Program-made: the position numbers and the translations under genes
Notes under the pieces: generated by a model
What the model saw: only the letters and a program-made list of their open reading frames with translations
Databases searched by the model: none
Told to the model about the DNA's origin: nothing
In this document: in pieces, positions 41,423 to 55,203 of the stretch
How the letters are laid out: every line of letters starts with the position of its first letter
Numbering within the stretch: position 1 is the first letter of the stretch
Source: an uncultured virus (IMG/VR IMGVR_UViG_3300020367_000005)
Lineage: Duplodnaviria; Heunggongvirae; Uroviricota; Caudoviricetes; Kyanoviridae
DNA: 64,000 nucleotides
Virus record (IMG/VR): IMGVR_UViG_3300020367_000005
Direction: 5' to 3' (one strand)

Positions 41423-41725
41423 CTATTTAGATTCTAATGGATAATCTGGCTCTGGATCATCAATGCAATGTTTGAATTTGTCAACATCAAAGTATGATAC
41501 ACCAGGAGGTGTGGGATTGTCAACTGCTTGACCTAATTGTTTCTTATATTCTCTCTCGTCTAGTACTTCATTGATAAGGATCTTCATCTCCTTAACATAA
41601 CTCTCAGTAAATAATCTCTTAGGTGTGATGATTGCTTTGGGAAGGTTCTCTTGCTGCTCTGCTAAAGGTCTCCCTTTATAGTTAGGGTCAGCAGGACCAC
41701 TCATCCCTTGGGTATCAATTTTCAT
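41423..41725 (-). CDS. Hypothetical protein
   Basis: ORF track. Confidence 0.65.
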   Translation of the reverse strand: MKIDTQGMSGPADPNYKGRPLAEQQENLPKAIITPKRLFTESYVKEMKILINEVLDEREYKKQLGQAVDNPTPPGVSYFDVDKFKHCIDDPEPDYPLESK

Positions 41726-41751
41726 AAAAAATGGGGAGTTTTATCTCCCCA
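41726..41751 (-). terminator. Intrinsic terminator after the DUF4278 gene
   Basis: TGGGGAG-ATAAAA-CTCCCCA-TTTTTT. Confidence 0.75.
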
Positions 41752-41759
41752 CTATTTAG

Positions 41760-41882
41760 TTAGACAGCAACTGCTTTGCTGTCATGCTTTACTCCACGAT
41801 ATGTAAGAGAAGCATTGCTCTTGCTGTTAGAGCGACTATCGTTAGTGTCATACTTGACACCACGGTAAGTGACTTGTGCCAT
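41760..41882 (-). CDS. DUF4278-family peptide (40 aa)
   Basis: MAQVTYRGVKYDTNDSRSNSKSNASLTYRGVKHDSKAVAV; two TYRGVxY/H repeats; GAGGA Shine-Dalgarno. Confidence 0.85.
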   Translation of the reverse strand: MAQVTYRGVKYDTNDSRSNSKSNASLTYRGVKHDSKAVAV

Positions 41883-41911
41883 TGGCTTGTCCTCAGGTAG
41901 GGTGAATAACC

Positions 41912-42111
41912 CGTTCCTTCAGTCGGCATTTGCGTCCTCTGGAAAACATGCTGGATCAGTATGTGCAATAATAACCCTTGTTAATTCCAATCTCTCGGTC
42001 TTATTAGGATTGTTACTTACATTTTCTAATAGCTCAGCAGTGTGGTCACAATCAAGTGGTGCACCGATAGCTATTAAACTGAGTAGTATGTGATACATAA
42101 GGATGAACGAT
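41912..42111 (-). ncRNA. glnA-type glutamine riboswitch aptamer 2, split by an ORF in its variable stem
   Basis: 5' half AUCGUUCAUCC (42111-42101); 3' half GGACGCAAAUGCCGACUGAAGGAACG (41937-41912). Confidence 0.65.
41919..42098 (-). CDS. 59-aa ORF nested in the riboswitch
   Basis: MYHILLSLIAIGAPLDCDHTAELLENVSNNPNKTERLELTRVIIAHTDPACFPEDANAD; hydrophobic N-terminus, two Cys. Confidence 0.65.
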   Translation of the reverse strand: MYHILLSLIAIGAPLDCDHTAELLENVSNNPNKTERLELTRVIIAHTDPACFPEDANAD

Positions 42112-42115
42112 AATC

Positions 42116-42157
42116 CGTTCCGTGTCGGCTTACTTGCGGTCTGTAATAGACTGAACG
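42116..42157 (-). ncRNA. glnA/Downstream-peptide-type glutamine riboswitch aptamer 1
   Basis: CGUUCA-GUCU/AGAC-CGCAAGUAAGCCGACACGGAACG with P1 CGUUC/GAACG. Confidence 0.65.
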
Positions 42158-42182
42158 TAATAGTATGTTAGCATACTATGAC

Positions 42183-42190
42183 TATTTATG
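42183..42190 (-). promoter_or_regulatory. Late promoter CATAAATA for the riboswitch unit
   Basis: NATAAATA followed by hairpin AUAGUAUG/CAUACUAU and the first aptamer. Confidence 0.55.
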
Positions 42191-42395
42191 CACTTTTTTT
42201 GTTATCTTTGATACTTTTCTTAACACCCTTCCGAGTCGTGCGTTTGCTCGTACTGTCTGGATGTGGCGTACACTTCTTCTGCCTCTTTAAATCCCTCTTC
42301 AAGGATCTCAGAAAAGATAAGTGGTCCCTTATACCAGCTTTCGGGTCTTTCAGCGAGCGGATCATCCTCTCTTCGGGTGTCTTCCATCGACTCAT
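42186..42395 (-). CDS. Basic hypothetical protein (alternative frame 42220-42387 is also open)
   Basis: ORF track. Confidence 0.45.
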   Translation of the reverse strand: MSRWKTPEERMIRSLKDPKAGIRDHLSFLRSLKRDLKRQKKCTPHPDSTSKRTTRKGVKKSIKDNKKSA

Positions 42396-42433
42396 CTTCT
42401 TTAAACCATTGTTTTCTAACCTTCTTCCAAAGA

Positions 42434-43570
42434 TCAGAGCTTAAATCCGCTAAAGGTATTAGATTCGACATCCTGTTTAATTCCTCCAACTATGTAAGAT
42501 TCAATCTCAGTTTCCTGAGGTGCATTTTGTTGTCCTTTGCTATTTAGCCAGTGTTCTGTCCAAGGTAAAGGATTATTCTTAGCTGGAATGTCATAAATTG
42601 GATCTAATTTGATTGCTTTCATTCTTCTGTTAGCAATCCATTCAACGTATTGTGATAGTAATCTCTCATTAAGACCTATCATACTGCCATCTTTAAATAG
42701 ATATCTAGCCCACTCTTTCTCTTCCTCCACTGCGTCCCTAAACATTCGGATCACAGTTTCCTTTTCTTCCTCCATAATCTCTTGGATTACAGGGTCATCA
42801 CCCTTCCTCCATTTGTAAATTATTTTCTGAGTAAGTGCAAGATGCTGACTTTCGTCTCGTGCGATGAGAGAGATAATCTTAGCGGATCCCTCCATAAGTT
42901 TGAGTTCACCAAACGCAAACGAGCAAGCGAATGAGACATAGAATCTGATGCCTTCAAGAATGTTAACATTAGTAATTGCAAGATAAAGAGCACGTTTAAG
43001 ATCTTTTATTGTCCACTGATGACTTGGTGATGACCTGGCATCCTTAGCCCATAGGTTACCACTAGCATACTGACCTGCGTATTCAATAAAAGAATTATAA
43101 GCCTGAGTAACTGACTCAGCCCTTGCTAGTATCTTATCGTCATCTAATACGCTGTCAAATACTTCACTAGGGTCTGCATAAACATTCTTAATAATATGTG
43201 TGTATGATCTACTATGAATCTGCTCCATAAATTCCCACACACCCATGCACCCTTCCAATTCTGGTAAAGAACAGAAGGGACTGAATGCCATACCTGGTCC
43301 TCTTCCTTGCACTGAGTCAAGAAGGATCTGATACTTCAGGTTACTTGTATATATGTGCTTCTGTTGCTCTGTTAGGGTTTTGTAATCTGCTCTATCTTTT
43401 TGTAAGGAAACCTCTTCTGGTCTCCAGAAATAACCCAGTTGTGTCTGAGTTAACTTATCAAAGTCAGGGTATTTGTATTCATCATACCGTTGCATACCCA
43501 AGGGAGCACCAAAGAACATAGGTTGTTTGGTGGTGTCTACTTTAGTAGTATTAAAGACCGTTAGTCCCAT
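42434..43570 (-). CDS. nrdB: Ribonucleotide reductase class Ia beta subunit
   Basis: FWRPEEV, EQIHSRSY, LEGIRFYVSF, RDESQH, APQETEIESY. Confidence 0.98.
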   Translation of the reverse strand: MGLTVFNTTKVDTTKQPMFFGAPLGMQRYDEYKYPDFDKLTQTQLGYFWRPEEVSLQKDRADYKTLTEQQKHIYTSNLKYQILLDSVQGRGPGMAFSPFCSLPELEGCMGVWEFMEQIHSRSYTHIIKNVYADPSEVFDSVLDDDKILARAESVTQAYNSFIEYAGQYASGNLWAKDARSSPSHQWTIKDLKRALYLAITNVNILEGIRFYVSFACSFAFGELKLMEGSAKIISLIARDESQHLALTQKIIYKWRKGDDPVIQEIMEEEKETVIRMFRDAVEEEKEWARYLFKDGSMIGLNERLLSQYVEWIANRRMKAIKLDPIYDIPAKNNPLPWTEHWLNSKGQQNAPQETEIESYIVGGIKQDVESNTFSGFKL

Positions 43571-54982: not shown

Positions 54983-55002
54983 AGTCTCTCTTGTGTGTGG
55001 GT

Positions 55003-55177
55003 GGGGAGGATGGAGTCCTGTGTACCATCAAGAGGAGGGCATTTCTACAGTTTAGAATTTCTCCTCTGCCTGAGACCCGACTGGTAAGTCGATTCTCCTA
55101 GTTCCCTAGGAGCAGCACCACCTGTGTCTCATCACCTTAACCAGCTATATGCCAGTAAGTTTATTCAGTCACTCCCA
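55003..55177 (-). ncRNA. manA RNA motif
   Basis: GGGAGUGACUGAAUAAACUUACUGGCAUAUAGCUGGUUAAGGUGAUGAGACACAGGUGGUGCUGC...CUCCC; stems GAGAC/GUCUC, CUCCUAG/CUAGGAG, CGACU/AGUCG, AGAGGAG/CUCCUCU, GAUGG/CCAUC; family recognised from recall. Confidence 0.75.
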
Positions 55178-55203
55178 TGTGAAGTGGCCTTCTTCACCCT
55201 TTT

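Follow-up and report, generated by a model that had tools for sequence, protein, structure and literature searches.

Riboswitches are taught as compact non-coding elements upstream of the genes that they control. The locus described here raises the question of whether the ligand-binding domain of such an element can enclose a complete protein gene and, if so, how sensing and translation would share the RNA. It lies in a 64-kb stretch of DNA (64,000 nucleotides, nt; hereafter the window, to whose full length all positions refer) of the uncultured virus IMGVR_UViG_3300020367_000005, a T4-like cyanophage, where two tandem aptamers precede a gene of the DUF4278 (IF17-like) family, with all features of the locus on the minus strand. 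An earlier note, made from the letters and a program-made list of open reading frames (ORFs), had held that the second aptamer (aptamer 2) is split around an ORF of 59 amino acids (aa; 42098-41919), and both the sequence and the ORF list agree with it.

By its sequence, helices and context, the element belongs to the type 1 glutamine riboswitches, and the loop of hairpin P1a in its second tandem aptamer appears to have been replaced by a complete translated gene. Sensing and translation of this nested gene probably compete on one RNA; to the full coupled reading, in which the split aptamer 2 would be functional and nested translation would compete with its folding, we give a probability of about 60 %.

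Results

A gene between the two halves of an aptamer

The order on the minus strand is a compact aptamer 1, the split aptamer 2, a short hairpin, the DUF4278 gene and a terminator. Aptamer 1 reads CGUUCA-GUCU-AUUAC-AGAC-CGCAAGUAAGCCGACAC-GGAACG. After the linker GAUUAU the motif restarts as CGUUCAUCCUU (42109-42099) with an AUG directly next to it: AUCGUUCAUCC occupies 42111-42101 and is followed by UU and then by the start codon of the nested gene (42098-42096). The rest of aptamer 2 consists of the final codons of that gene, GAG GAC GCA AAU GCC GAC UGA, plus AGGAACG (41939-41912). These codons fall within GGACGCAAAUGCCGACUGAAGGAACG (41937-41912), in line with the claim that the ORF tail (EDANAD-stop) is the conserved 3' half of the aptamer. 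Across the ORF, CGUUC (42109-42105) stands opposite GAACG (41916-41912) as helix P1, and UCCUU (42103-42099) opposite GAGGA (41939-41935) as the hairpin stem P1a; the strands for the closure of P1 and of a P2 base (here P1a) that had been foreseen are thus present, with five pairs in P1a and not three. The pattern CGTTCATCC-N150-180-GGACGCAA had one match in the window and none in 100 dinucleotide-preserving shuffles, and the compact-aptamer pattern also had a single match (42157-42116; 0/100 shuffles).

Aptamer 2 has P1, a hairpin directly 3' of the unpaired A, the junction GGACGCAAAUGCCGACUGAAGGAACG and the leader context of a DUF4278 gene, all features of the Rfam family RF01739, but it does not reach the gathering score of the covariance model. 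At that score only a manA RNA was reported by Rfam for the whole window, and aptamer 2 had no match even at E values up to 10 in a search of 41600-42400. Since the model cannot span a loop of about 170 nt, we take the missed RF01739 threshold as a limit of the model and not as evidence against kinship. Compact aptamers that share the identical 25-nt 3' half scored 33.9-39.4 bits for RF01739, and 8 of 10 reached the 35 bits required. In eight loci with split aptamers, none of the split copies was reported by Rfam; the expectation that covariance searches would miss the split aptamer therefore held both here and in relatives. The DUF4278 context was also regular, with YRG or YKG within the first 15 residues of the downstream ORF in 102 of 108 unique loci.

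P1a is maintained across the coding loop

We scanned IMG/VR for the 25-nt 3' half, leaving two positions free, and found at least 120 loci, which together with the window gave 121 matches listed. Copies were called split or compact by the distance from the 3' half to the nearest upstream CGTTCA. Among the matches listed, 84 were split (CGTTCA 142-199 nt upstream), 32 were compact (15-21 nt) and 5 were ended by the end of the contig.

The pairing of P1a was followed in 80 unique split sequences, with positions counted from the conserved unpaired A. A MAFFT alignment put the start codons in line and lost the register from position 4; the count made by the alignment tool covers P1 and the first three pairs of P1a, and positions 4 and beyond were counted with an anchor-registered script. 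Positions 1-5 were paired in 80, 80, 80, 79 and 78 of the 80 sequences, respectively, through different base pairs: CG 45, UA 30 and UG 5 at position 3; AU 29, CG 23, UA 16 and UG 11 at position 4; UA 40, AU 27, UG 8 and CG 3 at position 5. When the partner strand was slid by 1-3 nt, pairing at positions 3-7 fell from 79 % to 37-60 %. For P1 and the first three pairs of P1a, 100 % of the cells were paired and the observed covariation score was reached by none of 500 shuffles. In agreement with this, the mean helix had 6.9 pairs between the two halves of the same sequence and 4.0 between halves taken from different sequences. The median stem length was 6 in split and 5 in compact aptamers (Mann-Whitney p 4.6e-8, for sequences that are not independent), and longer split stems are what would be expected if a long loop needed compensating. 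As far as sequence comparison goes, these compensatory changes show that P1a has been maintained across a coding loop of about 170 nt.

The strands on both sides of the gene were constrained as well. In loci with a DAKAD tail, the tail was identical at the nucleotide level in 31/31 unique loci, without synonymous variants, while the body of the ORF varied most at third codon positions, suggesting that the tail is held by the RNA and not by the protein. The U-purine-A that serves as the nested stop was also present in 28/28 compact aptamers, suggesting that the aptamer supplies the stop codon of the nested gene. At the other end, at least one base of the start codon lay within the contiguous stem in 76 of the 80 sequences, the AUG being either inside the stem or at most 2 nt away from it.

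The codon ahead of the aptamer-encoded tail, which specifies Glu, Lys, Trp, Ile, Arg and other residues, co-varied with non-coding bases about 170 nt upstream (41935-41939 with 42099-42103 in the window), so that a protein residue appears to be dictated by RNA pairing.

The nested frame is a small protein gene

Among the matches listed, an ATG was found 9-12 nt past the start of CGTTCA, with an open frame after it, in 84/84 split copies. It was the first in-frame ATG at that site in 78 of the 84, four more having an extra in-frame ATG upstream, and the frame reached a UGA or UAA within the 3' half in 82, stopping one codon short in the other two (L059 and L114). The encoded peptides have 47-65 residues and, outside the subfamily of the window, are only 17-41 % identical to the window's peptide. 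The two cysteines that the earlier note had pointed out, Cys17 and Cys51 in the numbering of the window, were invariant across 80 distinct peptides.

The ratio of non-synonymous to synonymous substitution rates (dN/dS) was determined for 163 pairs of the same length, which are not independent of one another, with the first two and the last six codons left out. The median was 0.18 and all 163 pairs were below 1, so that the insert is, as proposed, consistently an ORF with dN/dS<1; differences at codon positions 1, 2 and 3 numbered 1810, 864 and 2841, respectively. By these measures of its sequence, the nested frame is a real small protein gene under purifying selection. Residues 9-58 of the window's nested protein matched positions 4-53 of the 53-position profile phrog_504 (E 2.5e-8). 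There was no match in Pfam, 119 metagenomic relatives were found, none of them named, and in the protein Atlas the protein occurred only in nameless viral clusters with scores <0.9. AlphaFold, run with the 80-sequence alignment, predicted a helical hairpin (helices at residues 17-28 and 33-45) with a predicted local distance difference test (pLDDT) score of 79.8, for which Foldseek gave no match against the PDB at E up to 0.001. Leader peptides come from very short ORFs and are not conserved as products, which is not the character of the nested ORF. The nested ORF has no Shine-Dalgarno sequence, and the DUF4278 gene has one.

A signal-peptide or export role was considered for the nested peptides, and we make no claim of export; peptides of the type ME.L.LTC have just six residues ahead of the first Cys, and one family found in aptamer 1 has a signal-peptide-like N-terminus.

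An independent sample was obtained by recruiting loci through the N-terminal and core peptides of the nested protein only, which gave 71 loci, 56 of them unique. CGTTCA lay just ahead of the start in 55 of the 56 unique loci, and GGAACG followed right after the stop in 54.

Distribution of the split layout

Among the matches listed, the architectures of aptamer 1/aptamer 2 were compact/split in 56, compact/compact in 20, split/split in 14 and split/compact in 11; in the remaining 15 of 116, aptamer 1 could not be classified, with only its 3' half in view in 14 and nothing in 1. The same variety was found in sequenced isolates. Aptamer 1 is compact and aptamer 2 split in P-SSM7 and P-RSM6, both are split in P-SSM3 and P-SSM4, and both are compact in S-PM2 and S-CREM1. 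In P-HM1, P-HM2 and MED4-213, whose sequences are 77-80 % identical to the region without net change in length, both aptamers are split by ORFs, annotated as hypothetical, 'T4-like GC 429' and '541'; the nested ORFs of P-SSM4, P-SSM7 and P-HM1/2 are likewise annotated as hypothetical proteins. In the marine virus AG-345-L05 the arrangement is the same and the ORF sequences are very different. The nested-gene layout is thus common among T4-like cyanophages, where aptamer 1, aptamer 2 or both may be split. Outside the viral collection, 185,579 species genomes gave three matches to this 3' half, all in contigs from metagenome-assembled genomes or single cells, and one of them is the same 189-kb record and range as the viral locus L064; this screen covered the present 3' half, and splitting of host aptamers of other sequence was outside it. 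With only three matches in so many genomes, this variant of the 3' half appears to be phage-specific.

A third family of nested ORFs (MTKALLLLAWVPLLS…ISCDAAWELMD…C) was found inside aptamer 1 in nine loci (L024, L028, L029, L046, L050, L062, L070, L074 and L102). It has a signal-peptide-like N-terminus, and its stop lies 11-15 nt before the 3' half and not inside it. In locus L089 (311-508, minus strand), a peptide of the aptamer-1 type (…HEPVHWTIKCDQW…) stood within a 3' half of the aptamer-2 type with a DAKAD end, a mixture suggesting that inserts move between aptamers.

This variety is also what would be seen if aptamer 2 sensed glutamine and the nested gene were merely tolerated in its loop, in a compact phage genome, with any interference between the two incidental. 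Compact and split aptamers are met in all four combinations, as counted above; close relatives differ by the insert, P-TIM68 having flanks 88 % identical to the window and two compact aptamers without it; one copy of the gene (L175) is free-standing; and the published glnA alignment, in the part of it available (PMC2864571, supplement file 5), tolerates loop inserts of about 50 nt. We nevertheless consider tolerance alone unlikely. In every one of the 84 split copies listed, the start of the ORF comes within 9-12 nt of CGUUCA, and the AUG is at or in the stem in 76/80; dissimilar peptide subfamilies all take the aptamer's own U-purine-A as their stop; and the nested genes lack the Shine-Dalgarno sequence that the DUF4278 gene has, a regularity that exceeds mere tolerance.

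RNA-library contigs over the unit

Six metatranscriptome runs contained part or all of the stretch, and in the four that we examined, from four studies, contigs were found over the unit in each. They were an exact 248-nt contig on 41910-42157 (run X17), one of 652 nt on 41806-42457 (X16), one of 1189 nt on 41698-42600 (X10) and one of 270 nt on 41859-42128 (X19). Single RNA-library contigs therefore contain aptamer 1 together with the nested gene and the 3' half. Word depths in run X17 were about 600 over 41746-42157 and 0-15, or without cover, in the neighbouring stretches, and neither X17 nor X19 had cover over 42179-42465. These depths are at most a hint of transcript limits near 42157 and 41746, since genes cannot be ranked by the depth of contigs and a gap in cover is no proof of anything.

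Four kinds of joint were found in contigs that skip 173-177 nt. Such contigs could speak for an insert that is not translated and either adds RNA structure to the hairpin or is removed like an intron, as could the interior, which folds as two local hairpin domains with its ends brought together. At three of the joints, however, the skipping contigs carry 15-18 different letters (those of the fourth are unlisted), and because these are foreign loop letters we assign the contigs to relatives with compact aptamers. Splicing or excision of the insert was rejected on the same ground, the foreign letters at three of the four joints. Since, in addition, the dN/dS of 0.18, the excess of third-position changes, the invariant cysteines and the confident predicted fold all speak for a protein, and the fold energy of the RNA is no better than that of shuffles, we regard an untranslated insert as very improbable.

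Relatives with a compact aptamer 2 (41937-42115) were also contained in runs X10, X17 and X19, suggesting that split and compact forms coexist in the same samples.

Organization of the locus

The features of the locus are collected in Table 1. The DUF4278 gene, of the kind that glutamine riboswitches usually control, starts 29 nt past aptamer 2. Upstream of aptamer 1, no site of the sigma-70 type was found in a consensus scan for promoters; P-HM1 has the same succession of TGCTAACAT, 7 nt and CGTTCA. In P-HM1 the short hairpin has a counterpart at the same place (GGAU...GUCC), and from Klahn 2018 (PMC6212724, in the part of the paper available) we infer that the short hairpin 3' of P1 would be the switch helix.

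Table 1. Features read at the tandem aptamer locus of the window
Feature	Position	Strand	Basis or remark
Candidate extended -10 promoter element (TGCTAACAT)	42165..42173	-	putative, read by eye; 7 nt ahead of aptamer 1
Aptamer 1, compact	42116..42157	-	P1 CGUUC/GAACG, hairpin GUCU-AUUAC-AGAC, junction CGCAAGUAAGCCGACAC
Inter-aptamer alternative hairpin	42105..42120	-	GAACG of aptamer 1 with CGUUC of aptamer 2, loop GAUUAU
Aptamer 2, 5' half	42099..42111	-	AU-CGUUC-A-UCCUU, the 5' strands of P1 and P1a
Nested gene, 59 aa, phrog_504, two Cys	41919..42098	-	ORF list; UGA stop within the 3' half of the aptamer
Aptamer 2, 3' half	41912..41939	-	GAGGA (3' strand of P1a), junction CGCAAAUGCCGACUGAAG, GAACG (3' strand of P1)
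Short hairpin adjoining P1 (GGGU-UAUUC-ACCC)	41900..41912	-	in the centroid fold
Shine-Dalgarno-like GAGGA	41890..41894	-	read from the sequence; 7 nt ahead of the DUF4278 start codon
DUF4278 (IF17-like) gene, 40 aa	41760..41882	-	Pfam PF14105, 30.6 bits (cut-off 25.3)
Intrinsic terminator, hairpin and U run	41730..41753	-	terminator scan

The neighbourhood, with ORFs resembling the ribonucleotide reductase beta subunit and purN and with a manA RNA, is that of a T4-like cyanophage. Two small ORFs without assigned function flank the unit on the minus strand, one of 100 aa (41423-41725) and one of 89 aa (42220-42489); the former matched phrog_1286 (E 1e-17) and has its start codon directly after the U run of the terminator, and the latter had no family match. 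The manA RNA (RF01745), a known cyanophage cis-regulatory motif, is full-length at 54999-55197 on the minus strand (171.4 bits, E 6.6e-46), and in a related contig (L053) it lies about 225 nt from the glutamine aptamers. The nearest virus genome among the records searched (G001, 199 kb) has only this one glutamine locus.

Folding predictions and possibly decaying copies

In thermodynamic folds, P1a was predicted across the ORF in 63 of the 80 sequences, and aptamer 2 of the window closed P1 when folded in isolation. Several other results weigh against the coupled reading, and the first of them come from the same predictions. P1 formed in none of the 80 context folds (0/80). In the subfamily of the window the probability of P1a was low (0.16, 0.04 and 0.002 for the three members shown), the value of 0.16 being that of L018, whose nested peptide is identical to the window's, and fewer than five contiguous P1a pairs were present in 11 of 55 unique loci of this subfamily. 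For the 311-nt leader of the window, the fold of minimum free energy paired the 3' P1 strand of aptamer 1 with the 5' P1 strand of aptamer 2; each of the 21 distinct linkers (3-6 nt) allowed this inter-aptamer hairpin, and the energies listed lay between -3.8 and -4.8 kcal/mol. Fold energies were not unusual when compared with shuffles (z -1.19 for the leader and -1.02 for the isolated aptamer), so that the interior of the ORF does not appear to be unusually structured.

Other points concern the comparisons themselves. P1 and the first two pairs of P1a were invariant, paired in 80/80 sequences, and give no covariation support; they are uninformative because the search pattern and the CGTTCA criterion partly fixed them. 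The sequences are related, so that both the covariation and the Mann-Whitney results make independent events look more numerous than they are. Aptamer 1 itself was below threshold in Rfam for both glutamine families (RF01739, 25.1 bits with a threshold of 35; RF01704, 26.1 bits with one of 33), neither compact nor split phage aptamers of this variant are known to us to have been probed, and RNA-library contigs do not prove transcription, as DNA may be present in such libraries.

A last group of points comes from individual copies. TTG stood in place of the nested ATG in six loci (L150, L151, L135, L136, L139 and L142), which may be decaying copies or may use UUG starts. In two of them (L150 and L151) the 3' half lacked the GGACGC part and the frame ran through GGAACG. 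One locus, L175 (IMGVR_UViG_3300020467_000025, 401-577), carries a free-standing nested gene (MYHILLSLIAIGAPLDCEH…, tail PPKDEQ) with no aptamer halves and a GC-rich terminator of its own, the sole such case among the 56 unique loci of the subfamily. The decayed copies and L175 suggest that the pairing of gene and aptamer is not obligatory. As a separate observation, a conserved junction base is changed in L136, L139 and L142, which have CGAAA for CGCAA.

Some of these results are what would be expected if the insertion had destroyed aptamer 2, leaving the 3' half as a coding tail or spacer and the 5' half as an initiation region or a partner of aptamer 1: the inter-aptamer hairpin is always possible and is predicted in context, P1 across the ORF never forms in the context fold, and some copies are visibly decaying. 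A dead aptamer would not be expected, on the other hand, to have P1a kept paired across 140-200 nt by compensatory changes, with split stems longer than compact ones, nor to keep the tail free of synonymous variation in 31/31 loci while the ORF body varies at third positions, nor to retain the non-coding AGGAACGG after the stop in 54 of the 56 protein-recruited loci. We therefore hold it to be rather improbable, more so than a tolerated insert.

Discussion

We return to the coupled reading, a functional split aptamer 2 whose folding competes with nested translation. A ribosome has a footprint of about 30 nt. When initiating on the nested AUG it would cover the whole 5' half of aptamer 2, and when terminating it would cover the junction and the 3' strand of P1. 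With the start at or in the top of P1a and the stop within the junction, ribosomes engaged in either step would cover an aptamer half and prevent folding; nested translation and folding of aptamer 2 would be mutually exclusive, and aptamer 2 stabilised by glutamine would bury the nested start. The logic gate proposed in the earlier note fits this geometry, with the start codon at or in the stem and the stop in the 3' half.

Glutamine riboswitches raise the expression of DUF4278/gifB as glutamine rises, according to the parts of Klahn 2018 (PMC6212724) and PMC6698751 that are available, in which the switch is proposed to be the melting of a short helix that adjoins P1 and blocks the ribosome-binding site. 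As these riboswitches turn DUF4278 on, one binding event would have two opposite effects, silencing the nested gene and activating the one downstream. At high glutamine the aptamer would be folded, hiding the nested start and leaving the DUF4278 site accessible; at low glutamine the nested gene would be translated and the aptamer kept open. Ribosomes passing along the nested gene would serve as a second input. Aptamer 1 might also take part: when unfolded, its 3' P1 strand may capture the 5' P1 strand of aptamer 2, and through this inter-aptamer hairpin aptamer 1 may determine whether the 5' strand of aptamer 2 is still available once transcription has reached its partner, about 170 nt further on. 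More tentatively, the aptamer could be the expression platform of its own nested gene, with opposite outputs and ribosome feedback, and its loops could be exchangeable slots for two-Cys proteins; this fuller version is possible, if somewhat doubtful, and swappable slots would account for the occurrence of four architectures and of a free-standing copy.

Two known arrangements come close to this layout. In the Mg2+-sensing mgtA leader, the ORF mgtL is translated inside the sensing RNA, and the position of the ribosome picks the structure. Leaders of the mgtL type thus share with the present element a translated ORF within the sensor and a second input, but their ORFs are very short and the product is irrelevant, whereas here the ORF has 47-65 codons and encodes a selected protein with a confident predicted fold. 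In T4-like phages, homing-endonuclease ORFs lie in the peripheral loops of group I introns, long-range helices close across these ORFs, and translation and folding interfere. In contrast to such introns, there is no splicing here, the RNA that hosts the gene is a ligand sensor, and the nested protein has no endonuclease features.

The element shares P1, the hairpin after the conserved A, the junction, the tandem arrangement and the downstream gene with the type 1 glutamine riboswitch (RF01739, upstream of gifB/DUF4278), as described in the accessible portions of PMC2864571 and PMC6212724. It differs from that family in that its hairpin loop is a protein gene of 180 nt, giving a span of about 200 nt instead of about 50 nt, and in that part of the aptamer codes (…EDANAD-stop). 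With the type 2 glutamine riboswitch of marine picocyanobacteria (RF01704) it shares the CGUUCA…CGCA…GGAACGG core and the short DUF4278 ORFs; there, as far as the portions at hand of PMC6698751 and PMC6212724 go, the peptide gene lies downstream of the aptamer and not inside it, and no type 2 pseudoknot hairpin can be made out in the present element.

The literature on glutamine riboswitches, searched in full text, yielded no description of an ORF inside a glutamine aptamer or any other riboswitch aptamer, and there was none in the text available of PMC6212724, PMC2864571, PMC6698751, PMC9004378, PMC12379486, PMC9964418 and PMC9602691. In the accessible part of the glnA alignment of Weinberg 2010 (PMC2864571, supplement file 5), two of four strings had no match and the other two had unrelated matches. 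A literature search by the locus tags of the nested genes of P-HM1 and P-HM2 found no paper. The earlier note's sense that the architecture is undescribed agrees with these searches. The layout is not unique to this phage, being present in P-SSM4, P-SSM7 and P-HM1/2. What we describe is thus a real and widespread variant of a known riboswitch that is apparently undescribed, and the mechanism suggested for the split aptamer from its sequence is plausible.

Here a complete, selected protein gene lies inside a ligand-binding domain in a natural and abundant class, whose aptamer is partly coding and provides the nested gene with its stop. Should the split RNA prove to bind glutamine, it would follow that an aptamer for a small molecule can form around a gene that is translated, that a single sensor can drive two outputs in opposite directions, and that translation can be an input to a riboswitch. 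The layout is carried by the sequenced isolates P-HM2 and P-SSM4 and is thereby testable. Because covariance models miss most copies of this phage variant (84 of the 116 classifiable matches listed are split), the nitrogen-sensing equipment of ocean cyanophages would be under-counted, and the link of the nested proteins to a glutamine sensor and an IF17-like gene offers a route into how phages read and manipulate the nitrogen status of their hosts.

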